Shown in pieces: positions 119 to 30,797 of a DNA stretch of 64,000 nt. Below the pieces are notes generated by a model. That model made no database searches. It saw only the letters and a program-made list of their open reading frames with translations, and was not told the origin of the DNA. Source of the DNA: an uncultured Acidobacteriota bacterium (GTDB lineage Bacteria > Acidobacteriota > Thermoanaerobaculia > Multivoradales > SZUA-115). The stretch is taken from positions 128,001-192,000 of the forward strand of contig CAWDVR010000002.1 of the NCBI GenBank assembly GCA_963805975.1, in the 5' to 3' direction. The translations under genes were made by a program, and so were the position numbers. Each line of letters starts with the position of its first letter. Within the stretch, counting starts at the first letter, position 1.

Positions 119-2421
119 AGACCTGGTGGCAGAGCCTTCGCCTCCTGGCGTGCTGCGCGGTGGCGGTCGCGGCCGGCCTGCCGGCGGCGGGCAGCCAGCA
201 CGTGCGGGTGGTGCTCGACACCTCCGGCTCGATGGCGACCAACGACCCGCCGCGCCTGACGATCCTCGCCACGCTCTTGCTCCACGACCTGGCCGATCTC
301 GGGCGCAATCTGGGTGACAGCTTCGAGGTGCTGCCCTTCGATCCGACGGCGGAGTGGCGGGACCCCGCCGCCGCGCCGCCGCTCGCGGTCGGCCCGCGGG
401 TGCGGGCGCGCTTCGGCGCCCGGGACGCGCTGGTCGCCGAGATTTCGTCTCTGCAGTACAACGCCCGCAACACCTACTTCTATCCTGGCCTCCGGGCGGC
501 CATCACCGATCTCGAGCAAGGCACCAGCCGTGACGTGCGCGCGCTGGTGCTGGTGACCGACGGCGTGCCGGTGGAGGCGACCCGCGAAGCGGAGCTCGCC
601 CTCATCCAGCGTGAGCTCCTGCCGCGTCTCCAGACGGGGGGCATCCGGCTCTACGTGCTGGCCTTCGGCCCCGAGGCCACGACCCACCGCGCTTTTTTCG
701 AGTCTCTGCTGGGCGGCCACGGGCAACGCGCTCCCGGCCAGCTGTTCGTCGATCGTGACGGCAGCGAGCTGCTGGCCACGATGAGCGAGATCTTCGCCCA
801 GGGCTTCGGCTACACTCGCTCCCATCCCCAGGCGCTCGCCGGCGGCTCCGATCTCGACCTCGAAGGCGGCGGCAAGGCCCAGCGCTCGGCCGTGGTGGTG
901 TCGTCGCCGCACGGAGGCGCGATCCCGAGCCTCAACCTCGTGCCACCGGCCGGCGGCAGCGTCAACGCTCCCGGGGGCGTCGTGGGCGCGGCCACCAACG
1001 GCGCGAGCTACGCGCTGACCTGGGCGCTCTCTCCCCATCCCGGGCGCTACCGCGCCAGCTCCAGTGCCGCCGCTGCTCGCGTCGTGGTGTTGCGCCCCAG
1101 CCGTCTGGCGCTCGAAGTGCAGAGCTCGACGCCGTCCACCCAGGCGCGACAGGTGATGGCCCGCACGCCGGTGCCCTGGCTGGTCGTGGCCCGGCCCGAG
1201 GGCGGCACGGGAGATCCCGGGCCGGTGAATATTTCATTTCGCACCCACGGGCCGCGCCGTACTCAGCCCGGGCCGGATGCGAGCCTCTACGAATGGTCGA
1301 GCGAGGCCGGCGCTCCGGCGGCAGGCTCTGACCAGTCATTGCCCGAAGGGCGGTCGTTTCCGGTCGAGGTGTCGTTTCCGCGCGACCCCCAGGAGGGAGA
1401 GGCCTCGTACCGCGGCTATCTCGAAGTCGAAGCCTGGCGGGGCGAGGCACGGGTCGGCGGCCTCACCGGCGAGAAGGCTTACCCGGTCGATGTCTTCCCG
1501 TTCCTGGACATCACGCCGTCACCGCTGGCCGGCGATGCGTTGCCGGCGGGCGACCGCAAGCGCCGGCCGCGGGCGCTGCGCAGCGGCGAGCGCGGCTGCG
1601 CCCTCTTTCATCTGCGCCTCACTTCCGGGCGCCTGCCTCATCTCAAGCAGCCGCGCTATTCGCTGCGGGCGACGCTCGACCGCTCGACCCAGGCGTTCCA
1701 AGGCGAGCTTGCCGGTGCCCTGGTGACGCTCGACGGCAAGTCCCTGGGGGTCGAAGGCCAAGCGAGCGCAGTCCCCTACCCCTGGCAGCTCGGCCAAGAG
1801 CTGAGCCAGGCCGACCTCCTGGGCGAGCACGCGATCTGTCTACAGGTGGGGCGGCCCAAAGCCGGCGACCCGGACAAGGCCCTGGAGCTGCCGCTTCGCC
1901 TGACCCTGCTCGAGAGCCCCTACGACAGCGCGCCGGTGATCGAGCCCTTCACGTTCCGGGTATGGATCAGCCCGCCGACTTTAGTCGAGCGCATCGGCCC
2001 CTGGCTCGGCCTGGCTTTCGCCGTGCTCTGCGGCGTGCTCGGCCTGGCGATCCTGCGCTGGCGATCCTCTTTGCCCCAGGACCTCGCTTACGCGCTGCAG
2101 CGCGACGAGCCGGGCGGTTCCTTGCCGCAGGCCACCTGGGCGGAGCTCACCTTCGAACGCCCGCCAGGGCTGGCGCGTTGGCTGGGGCTGGCGCCCGCCC
2201 TGCCGGTGCTGGCACTGGGCGAAGGCCGCCCGCTCGCCTGGGTGCGGCCGGCCAAGGTCGAGCTGTTCCATCTGCAACCGGCCGACGGAGTTCGGGTCGA
2301 GGACCCTACCGGCCAGGCGCTCGCCACGGCTCGCGGCGGCCGCTACACGCTCGAGGTCCACCGCGGCTACCGCCTGCTGGCCGGCGGCGAGCGCTACCTG
2401 CTGCGCCTGGAGTACCGGTGA
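115..2421 (+). CDS. Exported vWA-domain protein with a C-terminal TM helix and cytoplasmic beta-rich tail (768 aa)
   Basis: Signal-peptide-like N-terminus; MIDAS VVLDTSGSM, NTYF, LVLVTDG, LYVLAFG; TM segment WLGLAFAVLCGVLGLAILRWR. Confidence 0.85.
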   Translation: MKTWWQSLRLLACCAVAVAAGLPAAGSQHVRVVLDTSGSMATNDPPRLTILATLLLHDLADLGRNLGDSFEVLPFDPTAEWRDPAAAPPLAVGPRVRARFGARDALVAEISSLQYNARNTYFYPGLRAAITDLEQGTSRDVRALVLVTDGVPVEATREAELALIQRELLPRLQTGGIRLYVLAFGPEATTHRAFFESLLGGHGQRAPGQLFVDRDGSELLATMSEIFAQGFGYTRSHPQALAGGSDLDLEGGGKAQRSAVVVSSPHGGAIPSLNLVPPAGGSVNAPGGVVGAATNGASYALTWALSPHPGRYRASSSAAAARVVVLRPSRLALEVQSSTPSTQARQVMARTPVPWLVVARPEGGTGDPGPVNISFRTHGPRRTQPGPDASLYEWSSEAGAPAAGSDQSLPEGRSFPVEVSFPRDPQEGEASYRGYLEVEAWRGEARVGGLTGEKAYPVDVFPFLDITPSPLAGDALPAGDRKRRPRALRSGERGCALFHLRLTSGRLPHLKQPRYSLRATLDRSTQAFQGELAGALVTLDGKSLGVEGQASAVPYPWQLGQELSQADLLGEHAICLQVGRPKAGDPDKALELPLRLTLLESPYDSAPVIEPFTFRVWISPPTLVERIGPWLGLAFAVLCGVLGLAILRWRSSLPQDLAYALQRDEPGGSLPQATWAELTFERPPGLARWLGLAPALPVLALGEGRPLAWVRPAKVELFHLQPADGVRVEDPTGQALATARGGRYTLEVHRGYRLLAGGERYLLRLEYR

Positions 2422-4772
2422 GGGCTGCCACGACGGCCGCCGTGGCCGCTTTGCTCGCGGCGGGCGGGGCATGCCCGCTGCTCGCGGCCGGTGGCACGGG
2501 CCCCAAGAGCGTCGCTCTGGTGCTCGACACTTCGCGCTCGATGATCGAGAACGACCCGCAGCGCTACACCTCGGAGATCAGTCAGATCGTCTCCGACCTG
2601 CTGTCCGACGGCGACGAGCTCACCGTGGTGCGCATGCCCAAGGACGGTTTCTTCTACACCCCGGATTGCTCGGAAGGCGTCACGCCGGCCCTCGCCCGCA
2701 CCTCCGCCGGCGCGGATCGCCTCGGCTTCAAGCGCAGCCTCGACGCGCTGGTGCGCTACGACACCGGCACTTTCTTCGCCGCCCCCATCCGGACCGCGAT
2801 CGCCGCGCTACGCCGGCACCCCGACCGACCGCGCCTGTTGCTGGTCGTGGCGGATTCCGGCGGCCTCGGCGACTGCGAGACCGCGCTGACGAGAGAGCTC
2901 TCGGCCCTTGAGCGCGACGGCGCAACGCTCGCCGCCATCAACCTCGGCGGTGATGCGGGTGCCTTCGACCGCAATCCCGCTTTCGGGCTCACCGCCTCGG
3001 CGCGCGACGCCGAAGAGCTGATCGCCGCCGTGGCGCGGGTCTACCAGCGCTTTCTGGGCGGCCGGCAGGTGGCGACCGGCAACGCGCGCGGCAAAGTGCA
3101 GGTGGAGATCGCGCCGGCGGTCCGCGAAGCCTTCCTGGTCTTTGCCGCCGACGGCCCGCTGGGCGTGGTCTCCGAGGCCGCGGGCAATCCTGGCGCCCAC
3201 ACCGTCGATCTCGACTTTCGCGGCGGCGGCGGGGCTCAAGGCCTCGACGGCCGCCAGCGCGAGTACCGCATCGTTCGCCTCCAGCGGCCCAACGCCGGCC
3301 GCTGGACCTTCGAGGCCAGCGGGCTCACCTCCCAGGCCGGCTGGATGCTGATCCAGGACTCGGCGGTCGGAGTGCGCCTGGTCTCCTCGCCCACCGTGAC
3401 CGCCGGGATGGCGGCGACGATTGAGGCCCAGCTGGTGGACGAGGAGACCGGAGCGGCCATCACGGACTCCTCGTTTCTGCAAGGGCTGGGGATGACCGCG
3501 CAGATCGAAGGCCGCAACGTCACCCTGCGCGACGACGGCCAGGGCGGCGATCGGCTCGCCGGCGACGGGATCTTTTCCACCGCCGTCGAGATGAACCGGC
3601 TCGGGCAGCACGAGATCCCGGTGCACTTGGCGAGCTCGCTCCTCGATCGCGACCGCACTCTCGGGCTCGAAGTCGCGGCCAGCAGCTGGGAGCTGCGGGT
3701 GAGCTCTCCCGCTGTCGCCGAAGCCGGCAGCCCGGTCGAGCTGGCGGTCGAAACCGTGCCGATCGGCCGAGCCGAAGCTCTCAAGGCTCCGGAGCGGATC
3801 GACGTGACCGCCGCCGGCCAGGTGGTTCAGCTGACCAGCAGCCCGGCCCGGAAGGGCCTCTATACCGGGTCCTGGGTACCGGCCGAGCCGGGCACCGTGA
3901 CGCTCGAGTACCAGCCGGTCGGCGGCTCCGCGGCCCTGCCGGTCAGCGCCACCATGACCGTCAACAGCGTCTTGAAACTGGGCCCGGCCCAGCCCGTCAC
4001 GCTCGTGCCGGTGCAGGCGCACGGGGAGGCCACGGGCGAGCTCGCGCTCGCCCGTGCGACCGTACACGGCACCTTCGTGCTCGAAGCCAGCAGCGACTTC
4101 GCTCGCCGGCGCGCCCTGCTGGAGATCGATCCGGGCAGCGGCTGGGTCGCTCTGGGCGCGACGCCGGTGCCGCTCGAACTCGGCTCCGGCCGCCCGGCGA
4201 TCTGGCGCCTGCGGCTGCGCGCCGCGGCCTGCCCCGAGCCGGCGAGCGCCGGCGACCCCTTCGTCATCCACCTCGTGCAGCGGGGCGGCAGCGCCCGGCT
4301 CTCGATCCCGCTCGCGGTGGTGATCGAGCCCGAGCCGTGGTGGATCTGCTGGTGGCCCGTGCTGGCGCTGGCGCTGGCAGGCCTGGCGGCGGCGGTGGTG
4401 ATCCACGGCTTCGTCTCACCGTCTCGTTTCGCGCCACGCCTGGGCGTCCTGCTGTCGCCGGAGCTCGACCTGGGAGAAGGCTTCTTCCATCCCATCCGCG
4501 GCACTCGCGGCAGCGGCAGCGGTTTTTACCGTGACGCCACGGTCTTCGTCTGCGGCGACTACCGGCTGTCGGGTCGGACCGACGGCGCCGTGGCGCGGCT
4601 GCGGGCCGACGGTCGCGGCGTGCGCATCCGCACCGTGCCAGGAGCCACCCTGCTGCGCCAGAACGCCGACGGCGGCTGGGAGGCGTTGCCGGAGGAAGAA
4701 ACCAGCCTGCGGCTGGGCGCGCTCTACCGCAACGATCTCGCCACTCTCTTCTTCGAGGTTCGCCATGGCTGA
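2418..4772 (+). CDS. Exported vWA-domain protein with a CLCA/choice-of-anchor-X-like DDG motif, TM helix and cytoplasmic tail (about 784 aa)
   Basis: GTG at 2418 overlaps the upstream TGA; LVLDTSRSM, GTFF, LVVADSG; LRDDGQGGDRLAGDGIFS; TM segment WWPVLALALAGLAAAVVIHGF. Confidence 0.85.
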   Translation: MRAATTAAVAALLAAGGACPLLAAGGTGPKSVALVLDTSRSMIENDPQRYTSEISQIVSDLLSDGDELTVVRMPKDGFFYTPDCSEGVTPALARTSAGADRLGFKRSLDALVRYDTGTFFAAPIRTAIAALRRHPDRPRLLLVVADSGGLGDCETALTRELSALERDGATLAAINLGGDAGAFDRNPAFGLTASARDAEELIAAVARVYQRFLGGRQVATGNARGKVQVEIAPAVREAFLVFAADGPLGVVSEAAGNPGAHTVDLDFRGGGGAQGLDGRQREYRIVRLQRPNAGRWTFEASGLTSQAGWMLIQDSAVGVRLVSSPTVTAGMAATIEAQLVDEETGAAITDSSFLQGLGMTAQIEGRNVTLRDDGQGGDRLAGDGIFSTAVEMNRLGQHEIPVHLASSLLDRDRTLGLEVAASSWELRVSSPAVAEAGSPVELAVETVPIGRAEALKAPERIDVTAAGQVVQLTSSPARKGLYTGSWVPAEPGTVTLEYQPVGGSAALPVSATMTVNSVLKLGPAQPVTLVPVQAHGEATGELALARATVHGTFVLEASSDFARRRALLEIDPGSGWVALGATPVPLELGSGRPAIWRLRLRAAACPEPASAGDPFVIHLVQRGGSARLSIPLAVVIEPEPWWICWWPVLALALAGLAAAVVIHGFVSPSRFAPRLGVLLSPELDLGEGFFHPIRGTRGSGSGFYRDATVFVCGDYRLSGRTDGAVARLRADGRGVRIRTVPGATLLRQNADGGWEALPEEETSLRLGALYRNDLATLFFEVRHG

Positions 4773-4789: not shown

Positions 4790-7700
4790 ATGTCTGAGGA
4801 ATACCGCGCTGGACAGAGCACCATCACGCCAACCCTTGTCGTGGGCCTGGGTGGCACCGGCTCCGACATCGTCGACCGCATCGCCGGCCGCGCCGCCACC
4901 CTGCCCAACTGGGAAAGCCAGCTGCGCCCCTTGACCTCGTTCGTGGCCATCGACACCAACGAGCTCGATCAGCACGGCCTCGCTCACATCCCCGACGGCA
5001 ACCGCTTGAACATCGCCGCCTTCGACAAGGCGCGCGTGATCGATCACTTCCGCCGCTCGCAGAACCAGCAGGCCCTGCAATGGCTGGACCGCGCCTATCA
5101 ACCCCGCCCCGGCTTCAAGCCGGGCGCCGGCCAGATCCGCGTCGAATCGCGCCTGGGCTTCTTCTTCCATTCGCCGGAGATCCGCCAGCGCCTGCGCTCG
5201 CTGGTGCGCGAAACCCTCCGGCCCGGCATCGTGTGGCGCCAGGCCACGCCTCCGAAGTACAACGTCTACGTTTTCACGACGCTGGCCGGCGGCACCGGCT
5301 CGGGCTGCTTTCTCTCCGCCGCGTATCTGATCGAGGCGGTGATCCGCGAGCAGGAGTGGCAGCCGCGGATCGTCGCCAACCTGCTCTTGTCCACCTTGAT
5401 GCAGGACAAGGTCGGCCCCGAGCTCCACCCCGACATCCACGCCAATACCTATGCCGCCTTGAAGGAACTCGAGCACCTGACCAAGCTCGACTACCCGCAG
5501 GTGCGGCGCGAAGGCCGCACCGCGGAGGACTTCGTCTACTGCCGCGACGAGACTTCGCAGCAGATCCTCCAGGTCGGGAGCCGGCCGTTCTTCCTGAGCT
5601 TCCTGTTCGATCGCCCGTCGCATCTCGGCCTGCCCGAGGCCAAGCACGCCATCGCCGATGCCGCGTTCCTACAGATCTTCACGCCGATCATCGACAACCT
5701 GGCCGGCGAGCTCGACAACTACGAGAAGCACCTCGAGTCGCTCACCCTGTTCCCGGGCGAGCTCAAAAACGTCGGTCTGGGCTACACCAAGAACTTCGGC
5801 GCCTTCGGGGCGGTCGCCCTGGCGCTGCCCGGCCGCGACCTGCTCGAGTACTGCGCCCTGCGCTTCGCCGCCCAGGCGATGCGCAGCCAGATCACCTTCG
5901 GGGTCGACCCGAACGATCCGACCGACGATCGCGCCCGCGCCCTGGCACGCCTGGCGGTCAACTACGCGGACCCCAAGTTCCTCAACCTGGCGGACGCCGA
6001 GCGGGAGCGCGAGATCAACCGCGCCTTCGTCGCCTCGGTGCAGGAGATGGCACGCCAGGACGCGGTCGACGACATGACGCGTGGCTTCTGGTATCAGCTC
6101 GTCGCGAGCATCGACGAGGGGCCGCTCACCGGCACCGACCCGGACGGCAAGCCGATCCACGGGGAGTCGCTGGTCGCCGTGGTCGAGCGCCAGCTCGACG
6201 AGGCCCGCCGGCCGCTGCTCAACAAGGTCTCGATCAAGGAGCGCGCCTTTGCTTTTCACAAAGAGGGCGTGAGCCAGTACAACGAGCTGGTGAGCCGCCT
6301 GAAGGAAGACATCCGCAATGCCCGGGTGATCGTCGACGAAGGCTGCCGGGGCCTGGTGGCGAGCGCCGAGGAGGGCGAGGTGATCGCCGGGCTGAAGCTC
6401 GACCCGATCGCCGAGCGCTACCTCGCGCTGCGCAAGCTGGCGCATCTCGAAACCGAAGTCTTGCCCAAGGCGGAGCAGGAGCTGAGCAGCGCTCAAGTGC
6501 TGGAGCTCAACAACCCTGCGGTGCAGAAGCGCTTCGAGGAGCTGTACCAGAAGCTGCAAGACGAGGCGCGCGCGCGGCGCTGGCCCAATCGCGATCAGAG
6601 CTTTCTCGACGCCCGCAGCGAAGCCGAGGAGTACTACGGCAAGGTTGCGAAAGCGGCGCGCCGCATCCTCGACCTCGAAGTGCGCCTCCGGCAGCTGCGC
6701 GCGCTCACCGACTATCTGCGGCGCCGGGCCCGGCAGTATGCCCGCCTGGCCAACCGCATGAACGGCCTGGTGCAGGACCTGGAAGCCGACGCCGAGCGGC
6801 TGCGCCGGGGCGAGGTGGCGATCGAGCTGCCGCTGGCGCTCAAGGTGGAAGTCTTCGAAACCTTGGACGAGCCGCGGCGCCGCATCTGGGACCGCGTCTA
6901 CAACGCCCTGTTCCTCGACGGCGGCCGCTACCTCGCCACCTTCGATCGCCAGCTGCTGGCCGAAACCGTGGCGCGCGAGCTCAAGCCGGTCGTCGGCGCC
7001 GACGGCCGGGTGAGTGACAAGACCGTCGACCAGACCGTCACCGACCTGCGCCGCGCGCTCTGCCGACTCGGCCGCGAACGGCTGCGGCCGGCGATCCTGG
7101 GCGATGCGGACGCCACCGGGCTCGACCTCGAAACCGGCCTGGCGCTCGAGGCGCGCTTGATGCTGGCGCCGATGAAACGCCCGGGCGAAACCGTGACGCC
7201 GGAGGAGATCGAGGAGTACCGCGAGAAGAAGTTCCGCGCCCTGGCGCAGCTCGCCGGCGTGCTCGCCCGGGTGAGCGCGGCGGATGCCAAGGCGCTCGAC
7301 GACGGGGTCAAGACCAACCGCACCCGGCAGCTGATCCTGGGGCACTCCGGCGCGCGCGCCGAGTCGGTCGACGGCCGCTTCGTCGATCGCCTGAAGAGTG
7401 TGCTCTCTGCCGGCGGCCACCAGGTCGAGAAGGACTACTGGCACAACCCGCGGCTCGCCATCGTGCACGACGTCGAGCTGCCGATCCCGCTGTACTACTT
7501 CCAGCCAGTGGTGGGCGAGATCGAAGAGGCGTATTTGAAGATCGCCGCCGAGGAGCGCCGCGGCTACAACCTGCACACCGACTTCAACTGGGAAAAGTCG
7601 CTGCCCAACCTGAACCCGCGGCGCTCGGAGCTGACGGTGGGCTGGTCGCTCAGCCAGCTGGCCGAGGGCCTGGTGAGCCGCATCATCCTCTTCCGCGACG

Positions 7701-8080
7701 GTCGCTGGCAGTGGCAGGGGGAGCGCGACGGCAAGGCCGAGATCCTCGGGCCCACGCTGTCGAGCGCCCTCTACCGGATGGGCGAGATCCATCGCTTCGA
7801 GGACCTGCAGCGGGAGTTCGAGCGGCAGGTGCGCCAGGCCCGCGCGGCCCTGCCGGCGGAAGAGCTGTCGGTCCGGCGCCAGCAGCTGGCGCAGCGGATC
7901 GAGGGCTTGGTCGCGGACATGTCGCGGCGCGAGCTCAACGGCGAGATGAGCCGTGAAGACATCCTCGACCGGCCGATCCTGCGCACCCTGATGCTCTACC
8001 TACCCACCGGCCATGCCCACGACGATCGCACTGTCTCGGCCAGCGCCGGCTACAGCCAGCTCACCGAGGAAGGAGCCTGA
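4790..8080 (+). CDS. Tubulin/FtsZ-like (Tubulin_2, FtsZl-type) GTPase with a long helical C-terminal region (1096 aa)
   Basis: AAGGAG RBS; LVVGLGGTG, AIDTN, GAGQIR, TLAGGTGSG signature, ANTYAALKEL. Confidence 0.9.
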   Translation: MSEEYRAGQSTITPTLVVGLGGTGSDIVDRIAGRAATLPNWESQLRPLTSFVAIDTNELDQHGLAHIPDGNRLNIAAFDKARVIDHFRRSQNQQALQWLDRAYQPRPGFKPGAGQIRVESRLGFFFHSPEIRQRLRSLVRETLRPGIVWRQATPPKYNVYVFTTLAGGTGSGCFLSAAYLIEAVIREQEWQPRIVANLLLSTLMQDKVGPELHPDIHANTYAALKELEHLTKLDYPQVRREGRTAEDFVYCRDETSQQILQVGSRPFFLSFLFDRPSHLGLPEAKHAIADAAFLQIFTPIIDNLAGELDNYEKHLESLTLFPGELKNVGLGYTKNFGAFGAVALALPGRDLLEYCALRFAAQAMRSQITFGVDPNDPTDDRARALARLAVNYADPKFLNLADAEREREINRAFVASVQEMARQDAVDDMTRGFWYQLVASIDEGPLTGTDPDGKPIHGESLVAVVERQLDEARRPLLNKVSIKERAFAFHKEGVSQYNELVSRLKEDIRNARVIVDEGCRGLVASAEEGEVIAGLKLDPIAERYLALRKLAHLETEVLPKAEQELSSAQVLELNNPAVQKRFEELYQKLQDEARARRWPNRDQSFLDARSEAEEYYGKVAKAARRILDLEVRLRQLRALTDYLRRRARQYARLANRMNGLVQDLEADAERLRRGEVAIELPLALKVEVFETLDEPRRRIWDRVYNALFLDGGRYLATFDRQLLAETVARELKPVVGADGRVSDKTVDQTVTDLRRALCRLGRERLRPAILGDADATGLDLETGLALEARLMLAPMKRPGETVTPEEIEEYREKKFRALAQLAGVLARVSAADAKALDDGVKTNRTRQLILGHSGARAESVDGRFVDRLKSVLSAGGHQVEKDYWHNPRLAIVHDVELPIPLYYFQPVVGEIEEAYLKIAAEERRGYNLHTDFNWEKSLPNLNPRRSELTVGWSLSQLAEGLVSRIILFRDGRWQWQGERDGKAEILGPTLSSALYRMGEIHRFEDLQREFERQVRQARAALPAEELSVRRQQLAQRIEGLVADMSRRELNGEMSREDILDRPILRTLMLYLPTGHAHDDRTVSASAGYSQLTEEGA

Positions 8081-8084
8081 AGCG

Positions 8085-10526
8085 GTGCACCGCGCCACGA
8101 TTCTGCTGGGCTGGGGCAAGCTCGGGCGCGAGGTCCTGCGCCGGATGCTGGTCACCGCCGCGCTGCGCGATGCCCTGGCCTGGGAAACCGGCGGCGGCGA
8201 TCCGCTGGACAGAAAGCGGCGCCTCGCCGGCCTCGAGCTCTTCTGTCTGACCGAGCCGCCGGCCGAGGGTGACGGCCGCCAGAGCTTCACTGGCCTGTTC
8301 GGTGAGACCGATCTCGAGCTGCTGGCGGACGTCGAGGCCCAGATCCGCGACCTCGACGCCGGGGCCGAGGGCGGGGAGGCCGTGGCACGAGCGGTGGTCG
8401 AGGGCGCCAAGCGCCTGCTGGCTGCAAACGGCGAGGCCGACGCCAGCCGGCCGCCCGGGCTCGACCTGCTGGTGGTGGCGCACCCGCACGACCGTGAAGC
8501 GCTCGGCCGGCTGGAAACGGTGATGGATCGGGTGTTCGCCGCGCTCGGGCGGCTCGGCGTCCTGCAGCGCAGCGTACCCGGGGCCGAACCGCTGGCGGCA
8601 GTGGCTCTGCTCGATCTCGACGGCGAATGGGACCCGGCGCCGGCGGCACGGGCCCTGCGGGCGACGCTGGCGGAGATCCTGGAGCGTTGGGAGGGGCGCC
8701 GGCGAACGGGCGAGATCACCTTCACCCGGGTCTACCTGAGCGGCGAGATGGGGCGCCACCAAGTACGGCGCAGCGAGCTGCGCATCGACGAGCTCAGCCT
8801 GTTTCTCGAGCTGATGCTGTTCGAGGGCCGGCAGCACGAGTCGCTCCGGCGGCTCTTTCAGCCCCAGCCCGTGCAGGAGCCCGGGCTCGGCACTTTCGGC
8901 GTGCGCCTCTTCGAGCACAACCACTCGCTGCTCAAACAGCTGGCGGCGGCGCGCTTCGGGGGTCTGTGGCTGCGCTACCTGGCCGGCGCGGTCCCGGCCG
9001 ACGACGATCGCCCCAGCTCGCCGCTCGCCGAGCGGCTGGCGCCGTTTCATCCCGCGCGCCTCAACCAGCTCTTGGGCTGGGACGAGGTCGAACGCAATCT
9101 CGGGCGCGAGCTCGGTGCGCTCGAAGACGAGCTGCTGGCGATCCCGCCCGAGCGCGACGACTGGGCGCAAGCCGTGCGCGCCCGCTACGAGCAGCACGCC
9201 GCCGCCATCACGGCCGAGCTCGGCGAGAGCGCCGGTCAATCCGCGGCGCGGCTGACGGTCGAGCTCAAGCGCTTTCCGGAGGTGCTCGCGGCCGGCATCA
9301 CCAGCGCGCTTTGCGACCCGCATCGGCCCATCCCCCTGGGAGCCGTGCTGGCAGAGCTCGCCCCTCTGCACGAAGCCACGCGCAGGCTGCCCGCGGCCGT
9401 GCGCCACGGCGAGCGCGCGACGGAATCGTTCTGGCAGCGCCTGGGCCGGCTGGCGGCAAGCTATCGGTCGCTCGCCGGCGAGCGCTTCGCCAGCAAATGG
9501 GTATGGGCCCTCCTGACCTTGCTGGCGAGCGTCGGCTGGCTGGCTTTTGCCCGCCAGGCTCTGGAGGGCTTGCCCGCGCCGGGCCCACTGACCCACCCGG
9601 CCGTGAGCACGCTGCTTTCCGGGCTCCAGGGATTGGCTCATCCCACCATCGCCAGCCTGCTCCTGCTGGCGCTGGCGGCGGCGTTCTTCTTCGGGCTCGC
9701 GGCCCCGGCCCTCGATCGGCGCCTGATGCGCCTGGCGCGCTTTTTCGTCGATCGCCGGCAAGGCCGGCTGGTCGACGCTCTGCGTGCCGCCCTGGCGCGG
9801 AGCGGCGAGCTTGCCGCTCCTCTGGAGGCGACCGTCTCCAGCCTGCAGCGCGACTTGGCGGTGAGCGCGGCCAGCGCCGTGGGCCGCGAAGTGGACCGCG
9901 CGGTACGCCGCATCGAAGAGCTGCGGCGCGAGGCCCTTTGGCTCTCCGAACAGCTCGGACAGTTCCTGGCGCTCTTCGGCCTGACGCTCGACAGTGATAC
10001 GCCGGCGCTCGAGTTGGTGCGCAAGGATGGTACCGGCATTCGCCAGCGCACCGAGCGGGCGAGCGAGCTCACCGCGCTGCTGCGCGCTCACCCTCCGGAG
10101 CCGGCGCTCTATCGCTCCGTCCAGGGCGAGCAGTGGGTCTTCCAGGGCTGGAACGAGCCTGGAGGCTCGATCTTCCTCGACCCACTCGAGTTCATCGCCC
10201 GCCTGAGCCAGCGCTTCCAGGCGCCATCCGGCAGCCTGGGAGAGCCGCGGGACGGCGATGCCGAGCACCAGGAGCTGCTGAGCTTCCTGGCCCAGCGCGG
10301 CAGTGCCAATCTGGCCTTCGACTGGCGCCAGCAGGATGGCGTGGCGGCGCCGCAGCGCCTGGCCGTGCTGCCTCAGCGCTGGAGAATGCTCGGCGGCGTC
10401 ACGGCCCAGCTCACCGACGTCAGCATCGACGGCAGCCGAACGCTGTCGAGCGCCGAGGACGACCGTGCCTATCTGATCAATCTTCAGCTCGGCCTGCCTT
10501 CCAGGCTGCTCGGAGAACAGCCATGA
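8085..10526 (+). CDS. Degenerate tubulin-like paralogue with two TM helices (about 813 aa)
   Basis: AGGAG RBS then GTG; TILLGWGKLGREVL corresponds to TLVVGLGGTGSDIV; LGTFGVRLF..LLKQLAAARF corresponds to FGAFGAVAL..LLEYCALRF; no GGGTGSG; two hydrophobic helices. Confidence 0.65.
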   Translation: MHRATILLGWGKLGREVLRRMLVTAALRDALAWETGGGDPLDRKRRLAGLELFCLTEPPAEGDGRQSFTGLFGETDLELLADVEAQIRDLDAGAEGGEAVARAVVEGAKRLLAANGEADASRPPGLDLLVVAHPHDREALGRLETVMDRVFAALGRLGVLQRSVPGAEPLAAVALLDLDGEWDPAPAARALRATLAEILERWEGRRRTGEITFTRVYLSGEMGRHQVRRSELRIDELSLFLELMLFEGRQHESLRRLFQPQPVQEPGLGTFGVRLFEHNHSLLKQLAAARFGGLWLRYLAGAVPADDDRPSSPLAERLAPFHPARLNQLLGWDEVERNLGRELGALEDELLAIPPERDDWAQAVRARYEQHAAAITAELGESAGQSAARLTVELKRFPEVLAAGITSALCDPHRPIPLGAVLAELAPLHEATRRLPAAVRHGERATESFWQRLGRLAASYRSLAGERFASKWVWALLTLLASVGWLAFARQALEGLPAPGPLTHPAVSTLLSGLQGLAHPTIASLLLLALAAAFFFGLAAPALDRRLMRLARFFVDRRQGRLVDALRAALARSGELAAPLEATVSSLQRDLAVSAASAVGREVDRAVRRIEELRREALWLSEQLGQFLALFGLTLDSDTPALELVRKDGTGIRQRTERASELTALLRAHPPEPALYRSVQGEQWVFQGWNEPGGSIFLDPLEFIARLSQRFQAPSGSLGEPRDGDAEHQELLSFLAQRGSANLAFDWRQQDGVAAPQRLAVLPQRWRMLGGVTAQLTDVSIDGSRTLSSAEDDRAYLINLQLGLPSRLLGEQP

Positions 10527-13420
10527 GGTGGTTGGACCAGGTGGTGCTGCCGGTCGGTACGCTCGCCCTCACGACCTTGGGAGCCCGGCTGGCGCATGCC
10601 GAGCTCGGTCGCCGCCGTCTCGGCCATCGCACGGCCTTCTGGCGGCGGGTGGCGCTCGAGGCCGGGTTGACGCTCGGCCTCCTGAGCCTGATCTCGAGCT
10701 GGCTGGAGCCGTTGCTCCCCACTCTCTGGCAGCGCGGCTGGCACGCCCACTTCGATCTCGTGCCTGGCCAGCTGAGCTTGCGCCTCGGCTATCTCGCCGC
10801 GCTCGCGCTGCCGGTGGCGGTATGGGGAGCGCTGGTGGTCGTGGGCCTGATCCTCGCGGACCGGGCTCGGGGACGCTGGACCGGAAGGCAGCGGGCAGCG
10901 GGGCCGGCGGAGAGCGGGCGTCTCTGGGTACTGGCGGCGGCGTTGCCGCTCGCCGCCGCCCTGCTGGCGGGCTGGCCCCGTCTCGGCGGCGGGCCGGGGG
11001 CTTATCCGGCTTTTACCTGGGCAACACTCGCCGTCGCGCTGGTATCGCTGCTCGCCGCCGCGCTCACCACGAGCCCCGAAGGCCCGGTGACGGCGGCGAA
11101 GCCCGCGGCCGAACGGACCGACGACCCGCCGCGAGTACCCTGGCCCCAGGCCCTGCGCAACCACGGCTTGGACCTGGCGACGATGGCGCGCTGGCCGGCG
11201 AGCAAGCCGCGCCGCGAGCACGGCGAGGTGGCGCGTTCGGAGACGACGACGGACCTCGGAGCACGGCTGGCACGCTCCGGCGCGCGACAGGTCCCGCGGG
11301 AGCTGATCGAAACGGTCGAGACACTGCTGACCGGCGCCCGTGGTGCCGGCAGGCACGGCCGCGCACTGCTGGTGTTCGGCGCCGAGGACGACGGTCGCCT
11401 CGAAACTGTAGCGGCAGCCGCCGGCAGCATGGCCCAGCGCTTCCTGCGCCGGACGCTGGTGATCTGCCCGCACGGTGCCTCGGGCTTGGCGGCAGAGCTG
11501 AAGCGCTTCCTGCCGGCCGGCTCGCCGGAGATCCAGGCCTTCGACCGGCCTGGTGAGATCGACCGGAGCAAGCTGATCTGGGTCGCGACGGCCGAAGCCT
11601 GCTCCGAATCTCTCCTCTTCCAGCTCGCCAGCAACGAGCTGGCGCCCGGATTGGGCCTGGTCGTCTGGTGGGATCTGCACCGCTTCAGCGGTGTGCCGGC
11701 GGCCAACCTCTGGGCGGTTTCACATCGTCTCTACCGCCTGCTGGCGCGCTTCGGCTCCGGCGACGTACGCACTCTCGCCCTGGCTTGGCGCTCCCGCCAT
11801 CCCGGCGCGCAGGTGGAGCGTTACGTTCACCGCCTGTTGCCGCACGCGGAGGCCGACCGGCGCGAGATCCTGCTCGAGCCTTCCTGGCGGCAACCGACCG
11901 AGCTTCATCTGTTGGGCTCCACCGAGCGTTTCTTCAAGCTCGAGCCCACCGTCCTCGCCGATCGCACCCACCCCTTGGTGGCAGCCGCCAAGGCGTCGCT
12001 CGACGCTGCCTGGCCTACGCACCTGGACTTGCCGCCGGCGGCGGCGAGCGCCATGACGCTGCCGCTCGAGCGGGTGCGGGCGAGCGAGCGCCGTCTCGGC
12101 GAGGCGCTGTCGGCGCAGCCCGCGGCGGCGGCGGCGCGCCTGCTCACGATCGAGCCGTGGGACGTGCTGGCCCTGCCCGAGCGCATCAGCGAGCTCGGCC
12201 GTGCGACTTCGGAGAGCGACCCTCACCATGTCGGCGTGATGACGACGGGCAACCCCTACGTCGAGTACCTGCTGCATACATTGGCGGAGCAGCCGGCGGC
12301 GCTCCCCACCGCTTCACGCCGCATGGTGGCGGCCGTGGGTCAGCCCCGCATCCTCCACCGCCACCTGCTGCGGGCGCTGGCCGAGCTGCCGGATACCGGG
12401 GCGAATCTGCGACGCGACTTTCTCGCTTACGAGGGTGCGGTGGAGCAGACGCTCGCCGAACTGCACGCCAAGAACGAGCTGGCCCGCAGCGAGATCCGCA
12501 CGCTGGGGCCGGACCGCAAGCTCTGCCGCGATTTCAAGTACCACAGCTTCTCACCGCCGGACCGCAGATATGTGCCGTTCGACAGCGTCGGCGGCGAGCT
12601 GATCGACGTGCGTGATTCGGCGGCGGCGCAGGATCACCGCGGCGTGGTGCTGTCGGTCGACAGCGAGCGCCTGCTCATCAAGGCCTACCCCCATCGTGTT
12701 TTCACGCACGGCGGGCGGCGCTATCAAGTGCGCGAGTGGCTCTCGATCGACGAGGCCTTGCGCCGCGGCTTTGTCGAGTGCGAGCTCGAGGCGAATCCCG
12801 TCTCGAGCTTGCGCCTGCGCCGGCATACCTTGCAGGCCGTGCGACCCGAAGGCAACCGGGTCAACCTCGGGCGGCCGGAGCGTGGCCTCGCTCGCCAGCT
12901 CGCGCACCTCACCTACGAAGAGTGGGTGGACGGCGCACTGCACTGGAGCCGCGATCCCGCCGGCCGCATCCAGTCGCGATCGCTGCTGCTCGAGCGCGCG
13001 CTGCCGTTGCGCCTCGCGACCTCGGCGCTGCGCCTGTTCTTCCCCGACGACGCGAGCCGGCCGGCCCTCGAAGCGATCGCCCAGGCCTTCCGTTCGATCT
13101 TGCCGGTACACCTCGGTGTCGACGAGGACGATCTCGAAGTGGTGGCCTTCGGCGGCATGGCCGGTGAGCAGGGGCCGCGCGGCATCGCCTTGGTCGAGCT
13201 CTATTCCGGCGGCTTCGGCCTGCTCGAGCCGGTGGCCGAAGATCTCGACTTCCTCTTTGATCTGCTGGCGCGCATTCGCGCCTGGCTCAACTCCTGTCCT
13301 TGCCGCAGCACCGAAGGTTGTGAGCGGTGTCTGCGCTCGATCTCTGCTCTCGCCTGCAACGCGGGTCTGAGGCGGAGCCGGGCCGCCGCGCTCGAAACCC
13401 TGGCGCGCGTGCTGGGCTGA
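10523..13420 (+). CDS. Multi-TM protein fused to an inactivated Hrq1/YprA/MrfA-type SF2 helicase with DUF1998 Zn site (about 965 aa)
   Basis: ATGA overlap; about 5 N-terminal TM segments; VVWWDLHRFSGV at the DEAH position; YPHRVFTHGGRRYQV; LVELYSGGFG; CPCRSTEGCERC. Confidence 0.8.
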   Translation: MRWLDQVVLPVGTLALTTLGARLAHAELGRRRLGHRTAFWRRVALEAGLTLGLLSLISSWLEPLLPTLWQRGWHAHFDLVPGQLSLRLGYLAALALPVAVWGALVVVGLILADRARGRWTGRQRAAGPAESGRLWVLAAALPLAAALLAGWPRLGGGPGAYPAFTWATLAVALVSLLAAALTTSPEGPVTAAKPAAERTDDPPRVPWPQALRNHGLDLATMARWPASKPRREHGEVARSETTTDLGARLARSGARQVPRELIETVETLLTGARGAGRHGRALLVFGAEDDGRLETVAAAAGSMAQRFLRRTLVICPHGASGLAAELKRFLPAGSPEIQAFDRPGEIDRSKLIWVATAEACSESLLFQLASNELAPGLGLVVWWDLHRFSGVPAANLWAVSHRLYRLLARFGSGDVRTLALAWRSRHPGAQVERYVHRLLPHAEADRREILLEPSWRQPTELHLLGSTERFFKLEPTVLADRTHPLVAAAKASLDAAWPTHLDLPPAAASAMTLPLERVRASERRLGEALSAQPAAAAARLLTIEPWDVLALPERISELGRATSESDPHHVGVMTTGNPYVEYLLHTLAEQPAALPTASRRMVAAVGQPRILHRHLLRALAELPDTGANLRRDFLAYEGAVEQTLAELHAKNELARSEIRTLGPDRKLCRDFKYHSFSPPDRRYVPFDSVGGELIDVRDSAAAQDHRGVVLSVDSERLLIKAYPHRVFTHGGRRYQVREWLSIDEALRRGFVECELEANPVSSLRLRRHTLQAVRPEGNRVNLGRPERGLARQLAHLTYEEWVDGALHWSRDPAGRIQSRSLLLERALPLRLATSALRLFFPDDASRPALEAIAQAFRSILPVHLGVDEDDLEVVAFGGMAGEQGPRGIALVELYSGGFGLLEPVAEDLDFLFDLLARIRAWLNSCPCRSTEGCERCLRSISALACNAGLRRSRAAALETLARVLG

Positions 13421-13436: not shown

Positions 13437-15365
13437 ATGCCATGGATCGGATTCGCTGACCGGCCCGCCCTGGGCCAGCTCAAGGCCCAGATGGCTGGCT
13501 GCCGGCAACGCGTGCCGGCTCGCTGCCAGGGCTTCGAGCGCACATTGCTCGAGGTCGAGCGCGAGATCGAGATCGCGTTCCGTCGCTGGTGGCCCCTGCG
13601 GCCGCGTGAGGACGAGCTGGCACGGCTCCGGAAGCGCACGCTCGAGCTCGCGGCCGACAGTGAAGCCTTTGCCGCTTTCGCCGCCGCCCTGACGCCGCTC
13701 GAGGAAAAAGTCCGCTGGCTGCGCCATGAAGCCCTGCGCACGCCGAACCCCGAGGTGCAGAACTGGCTCATCCGCCACTGCGATGGCTGGGTTGGGGCCC
13801 TGTCACGACTCGGCCAGGCGCAACGAGCCGCCGAGCTCGCCGCGGAGCGGAAGCGTTTGCTCGAAGTGGAAGCTGAGGTGCGCCTGGCCGAGGAGGCCAT
13901 CACCGTGCTGGCCGAGCTGGCGCGGGCGGCGGCGACCCTGCCGGGCGAAGTCGGAGTGGCGCCGCTCGCGGCCCAGCTCCTCGGGTTGCGGCAGGACGTG
14001 CTCCACGCACAAGTCACGGCCGAGCTGCTGCGCAAGGCACGGCGCTTCCTCGCGCCGCTCGCCAACCTCCAGCCCCCGAGCCCGGTGCAAGGCCAGGCCG
14101 AGGACCTGATCGTGCTCGTCACGGTGCTTCAAAGCTGGAGCGGCGCCACTGGCCTCCTGGTGTCACAAGTCGAGGCGCTGGTGGCGCGGGTGCTCAGCCA
14201 TCAGGGGCCCCCGGACGAGCTCGCTGCCCAGGGCCGAGAGCTGCTCGAACAGCTGCTCGCTCTCGCCCGCAGCCGGCGCGAGGCGAGCCTGCGGAATCTC
14301 GACCAGCAGAACCAAGCCCTGGCCAACGGCTGCGGCAGACAGCCAGAGCAGAAATCGCTCGAGGCCGGCCTCGAAGCGCTGGCCAAGAAGAACGTGGCCG
14401 AGCCCGCCGACCATCAAGCCTGGGAAAGCGACCTCGAGCAGCTGCGCCGGCGCTTCGCGGACCTGGCCAAGGTCCTCGAGCAGCGCCTGCAGGCCACGCT
14501 CGGAGAACGGCTCGATGCTGCCACCGAGGTGCTGCGGCGGCTCGAGCAGGAATCCGACCTGCCCGCCGCGGTCGCTACCGAGTGCGATCGGCTTTCCGGC
14601 AGCTGGCGAGATCTCGCCGAGCGGCGCGGATGGAGCGAGGTGCTGCCGGGCCTGGCCGACGCGAAGGAGCTGCACGAGACGCTCTTGGCGCTCGAAGCCA
14701 GCGTGATTGCCGAGCGGGCCGCCACACGATCGCTCGACGAGCGGCGGCCCGCGCTCATCGACGAGCTCCAGGCCTTGTCCGCGGCTCAGCTGCGGCCACA
14801 GGAGCGAGCCGAGCGCGACCTTTGCCTGCGCGAGCTCGACGAGCTCGGGCCGGCGCCCACCACCGATCTGCGGCAGCGGCGCCTGCGCGTGGAACCGGTC
14901 GTGGCCCAGGGTGAAGACCTGCTCGAGCGCCTGCGCCAGGCGGAGGGGCGCGTGCGCGCACGGCACGCGGACTTGCTGCGCCGGCTCGAGGCCTTTCATC
15001 GCGCCGACTACGGGCTGGAGACAAGCCCGCTGCGCGATCGGGTGGAAGGCTTGATCCACGGCGTGCCCGCGACGCCCCAGGCCTGGAACGCCGTCGAGGA
15101 CCAGCTCGCGCTCGCCGAGGAGCTGCTCATTCGCCTCGACCGGCATGGCCGGCGCCGCGCGGCCGCACAGGTCGCGGGTCTGCTCGAAGCCCTGGACCGG
15201 AGCCGAACGGTGCGGCTTGAGCCGGTGTTGCGGCGCGAGATCGACGAGCTCGTGGCCAAAGCGTTGCAGTCGGGGAGCCACACCCTGCCGCCGAGCTCGT
15301 GGCGGCGGCGAGCCGAGCAGCTCTTGCGGCGCGCCGGTGCACCCGTGCTGCGAGGAGGTGTGTGA
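13437..15365 (+). CDS. Large alpha-helical/coiled-coil protein of unknown function (642 aa)
   Basis: GAGG RBS; L/E/R/A-rich heptad-like composition; stop overlaps the next ATG (TGATG). Confidence 0.75.
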   Translation: MPWIGFADRPALGQLKAQMAGCRQRVPARCQGFERTLLEVEREIEIAFRRWWPLRPREDELARLRKRTLELAADSEAFAAFAAALTPLEEKVRWLRHEALRTPNPEVQNWLIRHCDGWVGALSRLGQAQRAAELAAERKRLLEVEAEVRLAEEAITVLAELARAAATLPGEVGVAPLAAQLLGLRQDVLHAQVTAELLRKARRFLAPLANLQPPSPVQGQAEDLIVLVTVLQSWSGATGLLVSQVEALVARVLSHQGPPDELAAQGRELLEQLLALARSRREASLRNLDQQNQALANGCGRQPEQKSLEAGLEALAKKNVAEPADHQAWESDLEQLRRRFADLAKVLEQRLQATLGERLDAATEVLRRLEQESDLPAAVATECDRLSGSWRDLAERRGWSEVLPGLADAKELHETLLALEASVIAERAATRSLDERRPALIDELQALSAAQLRPQERAERDLCLRELDELGPAPTTDLRQRRLRVEPVVAQGEDLLERLRQAEGRVRARHADLLRRLEAFHRADYGLETSPLRDRVEGLIHGVPATPQAWNAVEDQLALAEELLIRLDRHGRRRAAAQVAGLLEALDRSRTVRLEPVLRREIDELVAKALQSGSHTLPPSSWRRRAEQLLRRAGAPVLRGGV

Positions 15366-16138
15366 TGTCTAGTGACTTAGGAACACCCCGGCAGATCTGC
15401 CTGTGGGGGCCGGTGAGCGCGGGCAAGACGGCGCTGCTCGCTCAGCTCGTCCACGCCGCACCGCTCGCCACGGATTCCTGGGAGGTGCTGCCTGCGGCCG
15501 AGGCGCAGGATTTCGTCGAGTCGACCCGGCATCGCATGCGCGAGCAGAATCGTTTTCCCGCGGCCACCACCGCCGGCGGCGGTCTGGCGCTGGCCTTTCA
15601 CTTTCGCCACCGGCGCCTGGGCAGCACCGCGACGCTGGCGGTCGAGGATCGGGCGGGCGACGATTCGCAAGCCTTCACGCCGCTCGGCGAGACGATCACC
15701 CGGGCGGAAGGCCTGGTGATGCTGCTCGACTCGACCTACGAGCCGGCGGTCCTCGAGGGTTTCCTGCTCCGCACGCTCGAGCGGCTCTCTTACGCCCGCG
15801 GTGCGCACTCCGGCCGCGATCCGCGACCGATCGCGGTCTGCCTCTCGAAGGCCGATCTCTACATCCAAACACCGGACGACCTGGCGAGCGCGAGCGCCGA
15901 GCCCGATGCCTTCGTGCGGCGGCGGCTCGACGAGCGCTGCCTGGCACCGCTCGCCACCTACTGCGAACGCTTCCAGCTCTTCCCGGTGTCGGCGATCGGC
16001 CTGCGCCTGCGCTGGGGGGCGATCGAACCGGTGGTGTTCGTGGATGAATCCGGCACCGAGCGCCTGTGCCCCCACACCACGCCGCTCAATCTCCTGGCCC
16101 CGTTTACCTGGGTGCTCGACCAATTGCAGGAGGCCTGA
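15365..16138 (+). CDS. TRAFAC-class P-loop GTPase, double-GTPase type (about 257 aa)
   Basis: G1 GPVSAGKT, G2 PAATT, G3 DRAG, G4 SKAD, G5 VSA; C-terminal PLNLLAPFTWVL. Confidence 0.85.
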   Translation: MSSDLGTPRQICLWGPVSAGKTALLAQLVHAAPLATDSWEVLPAAEAQDFVESTRHRMREQNRFPAATTAGGGLALAFHFRHRRLGSTATLAVEDRAGDDSQAFTPLGETITRAEGLVMLLDSTYEPAVLEGFLLRTLERLSYARGAHSGRDPRPIAVCLSKADLYIQTPDDLASASAEPDAFVRRRLDERCLAPLATYCERFQLFPVSAIGLRLRWGAIEPVVFVDESGTERLCPHTTPLNLLAPFTWVLDQLQEA

Positions 16139-17622
16139 TGGCAAGCGCGCTTTCCTGGCCGGCATTCAGCGGTATTCAAGGCCGCTCGTGGCAGCTGCCG
16201 CAGGAGCTCCGCGTCCGGCGTGGCATCTGGGGAAAAGTGCATGGCGCGCGCACCGATTTTCGCTGGATCGCCCAAAGCTCCGGCTTCGGTCATGGTGCAC
16301 AGCCGCTGGAAAAGCTCTTCTGGATGGGGCTCGAAGAGCAACCCACTCGCGCCGCCTTCTGGCGGGCGACCCCGGCTCGGTGGCTGGCGATCTCGGCCTA
16401 CCCCAGTCGCGCGGTGGATTGGAACGGGCGGCGGGGTTTCTGCGAGCGGCAGGTCCTCGAGTGGACGCCCGACCCCACCACCGAAACCCTGCCGGCGGCA
16501 GCCGCGGCACTCCTGCTGCTGCCTCGGGCCGAGACCTTCGACGACAGCCTGTGGTGGGATCAGGCGCTGCAACTCGCGGACTCCCCGGATCTCGTGCTGC
16601 CGCTGGTGGAAGATCGATCTCTGTACGTCCAGGTCGACGAGATCGCCCTTGCGGACGCGGTTCGACGGGGGCTCGACGAGCTGCGCAGCAGCGCTGCCGA
16701 CGGCGAGCTGCTGCCCGGTCTCGCGGCGCTCTACACGGCCCTTCGCGCCGGCCAGCAACCGGCTCTGCTGAGCGGGCTGCTCCAACCTCTTTCGGGGGTC
16801 GCTCTCGCCACCCTACTGTTGCTCCTGCCGCGCGAGCAGGCCGACCGCCTGTCGCTGGCCGGATGGCTCTTCGCCCACGGCGTGGCACCCTCGCGCCTGG
16901 CGGACAACTGGGACGTGGTCGCCCTGCCGCCACCGGCAGGAGAGCGTTCCATCACGCCCGACGACGAGGGCCTGCGCATGGCCGAGGCCCTGCTCGCGGG
17001 CGAGCCGCCGGGCGAGCTCGTCCCGCTCCCTCGCGCACCCAGGGCGAGCGCAGCCGTGACGAGCTCGTCACCCATCCAGTCCTGGATATCCCAGCCCCAG
17101 GCGCCACAGCCTTCAGAGCCCCCAGAAGAAGCTCGGCCGCTCGCCGCCCCCGGCCCGGAGGCGCCGGCGGTACTGCACGAGATCTTCCGGTTCGCCAGCG
17201 CCGGCAATCGCCGCTGGCTCGCGCCGGAAGCGATCGCACAGGTCTATCGGCAGCAAGCTCGCGGCGGTGCGCTCGCACCGGCCGACCGCGAGCTGCTCTG
17301 CGGCTGGATCGCTCAGCTCGCGACCCACCGCCCCCCTCACGCCGACGCGGACCAATGGCTGACGAAGGTGGACCTGCTGCGCGCGCTCGCCCTCGCCCTG
17401 GCGCCGTCTCCCGAAATCCTGGACCGTCTCGGAAGCTTCGCCAGTCAGCGGGTGCCGCCGCTGCTCTACGCCCCGATCTTCCAGGCCGGCCCGGAGATGC
17501 TGCGCGACCGCTTGGGCGATGCGGCTTTCCGCGCCGTTGCGAAAGAAAGCCGGGGTTGCCACTCGCCGCGCTGGCGACAGTGGGTCGAAGAATGGCTGGC
17601 GCCGCCCTCCGACGGCTTGTAG
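16138..17622 (+). CDS. GTPase-associated protein, GAP1-N-like (about 494 aa)
   Basis: TGATG coupling to the GTPase; WGKVHGARTDFRWIAQSSGF and VDWNGRRG motifs; Pro-rich linker then a helical domain. Confidence 0.6.
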   Translation: MASALSWPAFSGIQGRSWQLPQELRVRRGIWGKVHGARTDFRWIAQSSGFGHGAQPLEKLFWMGLEEQPTRAAFWRATPARWLAISAYPSRAVDWNGRRGFCERQVLEWTPDPTTETLPAAAAALLLLPRAETFDDSLWWDQALQLADSPDLVLPLVEDRSLYVQVDEIALADAVRRGLDELRSSAADGELLPGLAALYTALRAGQQPALLSGLLQPLSGVALATLLLLLPREQADRLSLAGWLFAHGVAPSRLADNWDVVALPPPAGERSITPDDEGLRMAEALLAGEPPGELVPLPRAPRASAAVTSSSPIQSWISQPQAPQPSEPPEEARPLAAPGPEAPAVLHEIFRFASAGNRRWLAPEAIAQVYRQQARGGALAPADRELLCGWIAQLATHRPPHADADQWLTKVDLLRALALALAPSPEILDRLGSFASQRVPPLLYAPIFQAGPEMLRDRLGDAAFRAVAKESRGCHSPRWRQWVEEWLAPPSDGL

Positions 17623-21365: not shown

Positions 21366-21370
21366 GACGT

Positions 21371-22468: not shown

Positions 22469-22478
22469 AGGATCTCCC

Positions 22479-24122: not shown

Positions 24123-24233
24123 CGGATAGACACTGCGGAGCCTGCTTTGTTGCCATGGAGCTACCGCAGAGCGGGATCGGACCTGCTCCGCGGTGACGTG
24201 CTAGTAGGGCGAGTTACGGAAAGCTGCGAGGCG

Positions 24234-24255
24234 CCGGCTCGCGAAAGCGAGCCGG
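24234..24255. other. Perfect 9-bp hairpin with a GAAA tetraloop
   Basis: CCGGCTCGC-GAAA-GCGAGCCGG. Confidence 0.6.
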
Positions 24256-24378
24256 TCCCGATTCTCACGTCGTCAGAGCACGATGGCGGCCCAGGCCGGC
24301 TGCCCGGAGGCATGTCAGCATCGATGGCCGAGCGAGCTTGGCAGCGGGGGTTCAATGGACACGGTGGCGCCTCATGCT

Positions 24379-29426: not shown

Positions 29427-29461
29427 CGCAATGACGGAGCCGGTCGCCGCGGAGCCGGCCC

Positions 29462-30772: not shown

Positions 30773-30797
30773 CGGTCGGTCGGTCGAGGTCAGACGC

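Follow-up and report, generated by a model that had tools for sequence, protein, structure and literature searches.

A predicted membrane-anchored, GTP-site-degenerate tubulin paralogue accompanies an FtsZl1 tubulin in an operon of an uncultured Acidobacteriota bacterium

Within a 64,000-nucleotide stretch of DNA from an uncultured Acidobacteriota bacterium (contig CAWDVR010000002.1; the whole stretch is called the window below), a gene for an intact FtsZl1-type tubulin is followed by one whose product, referred to here as the partner, is almost certainly a dead tubulin paralogue residing in the membrane. The tubulin (plus strand, 4790–8080) has 1096 amino acids and no transmembrane helix, while the partner (plus strand, 8085–10526) has 813 amino acids and two predicted transmembrane helices; both frames lie where an earlier, sequence-only reading of the window had placed them. 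That reading took the second protein to be a pseudo-GTPase of the tubulin/FtsZ fold with a membrane hairpin, and this is supported by fold models and by the loss of motifs. It missed, however, the larger FtsZl1/DO-GTPase operon, of a described kind, of which the two genes form the core. Such operons are known from comparative genomics, and it is the dead, membrane-anchored FtsZl1 paralogue for which our literature searches gave no earlier description.

The tubulin itself has retained what is expected of an active member of its family. It matches Pfam Tubulin_2 (PF13809) with an E-value of 3.6e-45 and 155 bits, as compared with a curated cut-off of 27, and has the FtsZl1 layout, namely an N-terminal domain with the GG[G]TG(S/T)G loop and, behind this domain, a long helical stretch. 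The FtsZl1 context, a vWA gene and a diverged GTPase in the same operon, is also present. The T3 motif GAGQ (residues 112–115, plus strand, 5123–5134) is kept by all 35 near-clade sequences and by 24 of the 26 distant tubulins, and the T4 signature loop GGTGSG (residues 167–172, plus strand, 5288–5305) is unchanged in all 61 aligned tubulins, GGTGSG itself being one of the two search patterns. An acidic E-x-D-N-Y-E motif (residues 307–312) lies at the position equivalent to helix H8, as assigned by element order, and its D309 and N310 are found in 35/35 near-clade sequences, a count biased by the use of this motif as a search pattern. Because of these conserved acidic residues, the tubulin may hydrolyse GTP without help from the partner, and it may do so as a homopolymer for which the partner is merely a seed or anchor. 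The fold predicted by modelling is that of a complete tubulin, interrupted at about residues 348–830 by a helical insertion which would displace the C-terminal domain by some 490 residues downstream. A canonical FtsZ is encoded elsewhere in the same genome.

The partner gene probably starts at a GTG codon at 8085, 4 nt past the tubulin stop and 9 nt past an AAGGAG site. An ATG at 8013 was rejected as a start, as it overlaps the tubulin gene and homologues start near 8085. To describe the partner family, sequences were collected from a protein search (4 hits), from four loci and from a profile search of 1.84 billion representatives, which gave 167 hits at E-values up to 0.001. The resulting alignment holds 88 sequences, 79 of full length and 9 partial ones covering the N-terminal part, and it was compared with 50 aligned tubulins picked among the 120 matches listed. 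The N-terminal tubulin-type domain of the partner (residues 1–300, plus strand, 8085–8984) keeps the T1 glycines across the family (G9 in 93%, G11 in 90% and G14 in 100%, 83/83). An aromatic residue is conserved at position 13 (F or Y in 72/83) and might occupy the guanine pocket. The Rossmann-like start pointed out before is indeed there, LLGWGKLG at residues 7–14 matching VVGLGGTG at 17–24 of the tubulin, and so is the post-domain motif, GTFG..LLKQLAAARF at 269–291 as against GAFG..LLEYCALRF at 337–359. The loss of GAGQ and GGTGSG, first noticed in the single protein, proved to be family-wide. A loop of the GGxG[ST]G/GGTG[ST] type is present in 0/88 partner sequences and in 50/50 tubulins, and GAG[QRN], sought anywhere in the first 330 amino acids, in 4/88 and 50/50, respectively; thus, we file the partner as a pseudo-GTPase and not as an active member. 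The loop equivalent to T4 (residues 133–141) is poorly conserved, with a mean of 0.37. Tubulin_2 gave no match at E-values up to 1 in any of 8 family members scanned, and no relevant Pfam family was found in the partner and 7 homologues.

It is the fold that ties the partner to the tubulins. The order of helices and strands in the N-terminal domain of the partner model is that of the neighbouring tubulin, and structural alignments extend to model residue 813 and to tubulin residue 383–397. On this basis, the C-terminal strands (about residues 745–813, plus strand, 10317–10523) are predicted to complete a tubulin C-terminal domain. The sequence-only reading had staked its proposal on a tubulin/FtsZ fold of the N-terminal 290 or so residues; this fold holds in the model and reaches the C-terminal strands, so that both the Rossmann-type N-domain and the tubulin C-terminal domain of the superfamily can be recognised there. 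Modelling thus predicts that no part of the tubulin fold is missing from the partner and that, in both proteins, a helical insertion of about 460–490 residues interrupts the fold after strand S7.

Inside the helical insertion of the partner lies a predicted transmembrane hairpin (about residues 471–489 and 521–540, plus strand, 9495–9704), where the model places helices at 471–494 and 520–555. With a Kyte-Doolittle window of 19 residues and a cut-off of 1.6, the second hydrophobic window of the partner passes (2.48) and the first stays below (1.52). Among the 79 full-length members two windows pass in 50, one in 27 and none in 2, and the family means of the two windows are 1.69 and 1.95, as compared with 0.77 for the next one. 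The two hydrophobic helices are thus a trait of the partner family, as the earlier reading of two transmembrane helices would have it, even though the first is sub-threshold in the protein encoded here. By the same measure, 43 of 50 tubulins, the one at 4790–8080 among them, have no such window. The loop between the helices has 14–38 amino acids, and lysine and arginine are richer on the flanks of the hairpin than in this loop in 79/79 full-length partners, which indicates an N-in/C-in topology, the two halves of the tubulin fold lying on the cytoplasmic side. The hairpin and its charge pattern are conserved in the partner family.

The gene order of related loci (numbered with the prefix L) is consistent with a lasting association of the two genes. 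Fifty-four near-clade loci were available, of which 14 end less than 1 kb from the tubulin, leaving 40 for the synteny analysis; the partner lies within 300 nt behind the tubulin in 33 of them. Several loci are near-duplicates, and for this reason the counts are not independent. When 23 genes located behind more distant tubulins or behind that of L004 were examined, 12 scored on the profile of the partner N-domain, and most of the complete genes among these 12 carry central hydrophobic windows. Both genes are under purifying selection (dN/dS, the ratio of non-synonymous to synonymous substitution rates, of 0.11–0.35 for the partner and 0.03–0.17 for the tubulin), the partner evolving about twice as fast (median identity of 37% vs 57% over 595 pairs). 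Two further loci, L091 (6603–13101) and L093 (5869–15862), have two Tubulin_2 genes each, all of which score well on the family. Both copies in L091 keep a GGTG-type loop and, hence, paired copies are not always degenerate. The distribution of the system is patchy. The partner was found in 1 of 60 relatives, with no match in a genome of the same genus; Tubulin_2 was found in 11 of the 400 other genomes sampled from the phylum, and the partner profile in none of these 400, with 2 candidates scored per genome. Named carriers include Thermoanaerobaculia, Methylococcaceae, Competibacteraceae and Kentrum.

The pair belongs to a tightly coupled run of plus-strand genes that occupies the first 17.6 kb of the window. 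Upstream of the tubulin are two vWA-like proteins of the same layout, with a predicted signal peptide, a C-terminal transmembrane helix and a cytoplasmic tail. The first (115–2421) matches VWA_2 at an E-value of 0.0013, below the curated cut-off, and has hydrophobic windows at residues 8–26 and 629–647; the second (2418–4772), whose gene keeps its place ahead of the tubulin gene in related loci, matches at 0.0063, likewise below the cut-off, and has windows at 7–25 and 648–666. They are the second and third genes of a set of three, the remaining copy being located just upstream of the window (VWA, E-value 2.3e-6). The last 130 or so residues of these proteins, past the transmembrane helix (e.g. 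4380–4772), form a conserved, beta-rich cytoplasmic tail, which by eye we take to recall an FHA-like sandwich. Behind the partner (plus strand, 10523–13420) comes a protein with four transmembrane helices which resembles MrfA/YprA (DUF1998) and has degenerate Walker A and B motifs; it matches MZB at 1.5e-8 and YprA (6znp) at 0.007, with WDLH replacing DELH. None of its aligned homologues has GKT or DExH, APDxCGQxE and WWxL-type motifs being typical instead. We consider this protein a predicted dead, membrane-anchored helicase resembling B. subtilis YprA/MrfA, and its lack of the Walker A lysine and the DExH box would give the operon two membrane-anchored pseudo-enzymes. The triple of tubulin, partner and helicase is also conserved in distant clades (loci L062, L067, L071, L074 and L094). 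Further downstream on the plus strand are a helical, coiled-coil-like protein (13437–15365), which has no Pfam match and whose homologues occupy the corresponding place in related loci, and a TRAFAC GTPase of the DO-GTPase2 family with an intact P-loop (15365–16138; PF19993, E-value 8.7e-7, 29 bits vs a cut-off of 27), nearly all aligned homologues of which retain GKT and [ST]KxD. The last gene (16138–17622) is GAP1-like by language-model features only (Atlas score of 0.95 to the GAP1-N2 cluster, GAP1-N2/GAP1-M); its position and fusions fit this assignment, and Pfam gave no match for the protein and 17 homologues.

A convergent unit of four genes on the minus strand (17656–24122) encodes a multi-transmembrane protein, a second P-loop GTPase, a large protein of no assigned family and a protein that is vWA-like by motif only; Pfam gave no significant match for it. 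The same four genes stand behind a frameshifted tubulin in L004, a locus with no partner, and in G040 the operon is followed by two of them. The unit is probably part of the same system. Right at its end is a DDE transposase gene (DUF772 and DDE_Tnp_1; minus strand, 24161–25657), and a mobile island may end there. On the other side, just upstream of the window, a divergent minus-strand unit (L104, 1776–9879) encodes a PP2C phosphatase, zinc-ribbon-FHA and FHA-trypsin proteins, a Ser/Thr kinase, a glycine-zipper protein and a TPR-CHAT protease. Genes for SIR2-TPR, GmrSD, caspase or CHAT proteins are present in related loci. Insertions in the operon were seen in L005 (8071–9921), L025 (7740–9734) and L044 (5549–7474), with SIR2-like and TPR, GmrSD N-domain, and ion-channel/OmpA-like genes. 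The minus-strand genes at 26360–35828 (a glycosyltransferase, a flavin halogenase-like protein, a TonB plug, a BamB-like propeller and a HemN-like radical SAM protein) are ordinary neighbours.

Each subunit of alpha/beta-tubulin and of BtubA/B retains the GGGTGSG loop and binds GTP, and both subunits of the Asgard AtubA/B keep their GTP loops. The likeness to alpha/beta-tubulin or BtubA/B drawn by the earlier reading is, therefore, a loose one: GTP-binding loops in both subunits are not found in the present pair, whose partner has lost T3 and T4. Moreover, none of the three known pairs has an insertion of 460 residues or transmembrane helices, and identity to them is 7–12%.

Operons with FtsZl1 and vWA genes were predicted in 2010 by Makarova and Koonin (PMC2875224). 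The FtsZl1 proteins described in that work share with ours a length of about 1100 amino acids, the GGTGSG loop, a long helical middle, upstream vWA genes, a diverged GTPase and a nearby kinase. Its tables place unassigned genes of 775–890 amino acids (families B8 and B1) right behind FtsZl1; such a gene was not recognised there as a tubulin, whereas the models of the present pair suggest a dead copy of the tubulin fold behind the tubulin. Its neighbour table contains none of the terms helicase, inactiv- and paralog. The tubulin theme of conflict systems with GAP1-N2-type DO-GTPases was described by Kaur et al. in 2020 (PMC7159879). As far as the accessible text goes, those systems share with ours a DO-GTPase beside a GAP1-like gene, tubulin genes, vWA proteins with transmembrane helices and a kinase/PP2C, and in Firmicutes they comprise two tubulin genes, with coiled coils, neither of which is called inactive or membrane-inserted. 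The theme is confined in that text to Firmicutes and Actinobacteria, unlike the relatives found here (Thermoanaerobaculia and Gammaproteobacteria). In addition, no FNIII protein was found in our operon by Pfam, a search which divergent repeats could escape, and the core genes here include one for a dead MrfA-like helicase. In the portions available, PMC9871819 leaves the FtsZl1 family out of consideration because it has no FtsZ_C/Tubulin_C Pfam domains, and such tubulins come up in a 2026 preprint (10.64898/2026.10.19.760177) only through a citation of the 2020 paper. The open-access literature yielded no experimental study of the FtsZl1 family or of this kind of operon, and nothing on an FtsZl1 paralogue that is inactive or inserted in the membrane, although the source data of PMC7159879 may annotate the second Firmicute tubulin as inactive.

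The explanation we favour, with somewhat better than even confidence, is that the partner serves as a membrane-fixed, GTP-independent subunit for assembly of the tubulin in a switch-controlled and probably defensive envelope system. The partner is predicted to sit in the inner membrane by its two-helix hairpin, and is likely to bind the active tubulin there and to hold or seed the assemblies that the latter forms. A direct complex of the two proteins is probable; for nucleation or tethering of filaments by the partner the chances are about even, and we regard a role of the system in defence as equally open to either answer. In such a scheme, exported vWA proteins would sense something at the envelope, and the DO-GTPase/GAP1-like pair, together with the neighbouring kinase/PP2C/FHA module, would gate the response. 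The dead copy in the membrane could then be the base on which GTP-bound tubulin assembles, through head-to-head contacts like those of a protofilament and perhaps also through contacts between the arms. The lattice and the dead helicase, acting as a nucleic-acid-binding or scaffold part, might finally contain an invader or trigger the nearby proteases. A bolder version, in which FtsZl1 systems are membrane-built heteropolymeric cytoskeletal immune machines, would have the transmembrane pseudo-tubulin nucleate the GTP-driven tubulin as a bacterial counterpart of gamma-tubulin, the long arm of the tubulin crosslink the lattice, the membrane-anchored dead helicase capture phage DNA, and surface vWA proteins with the DO-GTPase switch fire the assembly; taken jointly, these claims are doubtful.

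Several observations weigh against the favoured explanation. Sequence homology between the partner and the tubulin is weak. BLASTP of the partner against the neighbouring tubulin gave no significant match (best E-value 0.42), and profile-profile comparison gave probabilities of 26–56% (E-values of 7e-4 to 1e-4) and no signal for the C-terminal parts (0.2%); searches of PDB sequences with partner profiles returned no tubulin, only amphipathic-helix matches such as ApoA-I. Block-shuffled templates scored equally or higher in the N-domain comparison, so that the profile signal comes from local motifs and not from colinearity, although a control that retains local motifs is no valid null. It is because of the fold match that we regard the likeness as going beyond chance. 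The synteny also has exceptions. The partner is separated from the tubulin in 2 of the 40 near-clade loci and was not seen within 10 kb in 5; three of these five share inserted genes with L036, where the partner lies 7.7 kb on, and in another, L004, the tubulin is broken over three frames. Other FtsZl1 clades have a different downstream gene, e.g. for zinc-ribbon membrane proteins, and the partner is thus not needed by the FtsZl1 family as a whole. PADLOC recognises no core gene, save for a weak DruE match on the DUF1998 end of the helicase. Long arms could hinder protofilament contacts, a point raised by a reviewer of PMC2875224. A complex prediction with the two tubulin halves of the partner, the tubulin N-domain and GTP, designed without both arms and the tubulin C-domain, had a score of 0.00 (mark 0.32) and, given this design, speaks neither for nor against a complex.

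Another possibility, which we find rather unlikely, is that the partner regulates the tubulin, either by capping its GTP site as an inhibitor or by supplying residues that trigger hydrolysis, like the catalytic face of alpha-tubulin, the tubulin being kept off or recycled at the membrane. Beyond the T1/S4 core, the most conserved part of the partner is the equivalent of helix H7 with the following loop (R233 in 99%, E236 in 92%, E242 in 84%, E247 in 84% and R250 in 91%), which is where tubulins carry their activating face, as mapped by helix and strand order only; E247 and R250, at the end of this helix, would suit a capping role or one like that of a GTPase-activating protein. On the other hand, these residues may be structural, and the E-x-D-N-Y-E motif of the tubulin may make the partner unneeded for hydrolysis.

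Less probable still is a dynamin-like machine for membrane remodelling or repair, acting in envelope stress or vesicle formation and not in defence. Bacterial dynamin-like pairs are built of a head, a stalk and a membrane paddle. The present pair shares their architecture only (a GTPase head, a long helical arm, a membrane segment in the arm and paralogous gene pairs), and the model does show a GTPase head and a helical stalk with the hairpin at it; dynamin-like proteins, however, are P-loop GTPases and not tubulin folds. Foldseek likeness to OPA1, Mgm1 and Drp1 is weak (probability 0.3–0.6), and these structurally insignificant matches (TM-score 0.12–0.17, root mean square deviation about 30) reflect long helices only. 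The operon has many membrane proteins, and PMC2875224 argues for membrane remodelling; the patchy distribution, the dead helicase and the nuclease and protease neighbours fit housekeeping poorly. At the protein level, this possibility and the favoured explanation are compatible.

It is very improbable that the partner is a latent pore-forming effector, a soluble helical bundle which, upon release by the tubulin/DO-GTPase switch, would insert its hydrophobic hairpin and kill the cell. Membrane pores are a frequent end point of conflict systems (PMC7159879), and the two best Foldseek E-values for the partner belong to ClyA-type tripartite pore-forming toxins, which must also be counted against the favoured explanation. 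These hits, however, have a TM-score of 0.10 and root mean square deviations of 33–45, are absent from the VIA top 50 lists and were rejected, like the dynamin ones, as mere long-helix matches; moreover, the strict positive-inside pattern (79/79) fits an ordinary integral membrane protein. A generic Rossmann likeness, or a decaying duplicate with no role, is already largely refuted.

The authors of PMC2875224 found neither T6-H7 nor a tubulin-like C-terminal domain in FtsZl1 and left open whether this protein has filament-making parts; our models align through both regions and predict a complete tubulin fold. They also suggest that the unassigned gene next to FtsZl1 encodes a dead, membrane-spanning copy of it. 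If the favoured explanation is true, a tubulin polymer would be attached to the membrane in a new manner, by an integral-membrane pseudo-tubulin, and the pair gives a concrete two-protein target for reconstitution in a widespread but patchy system.
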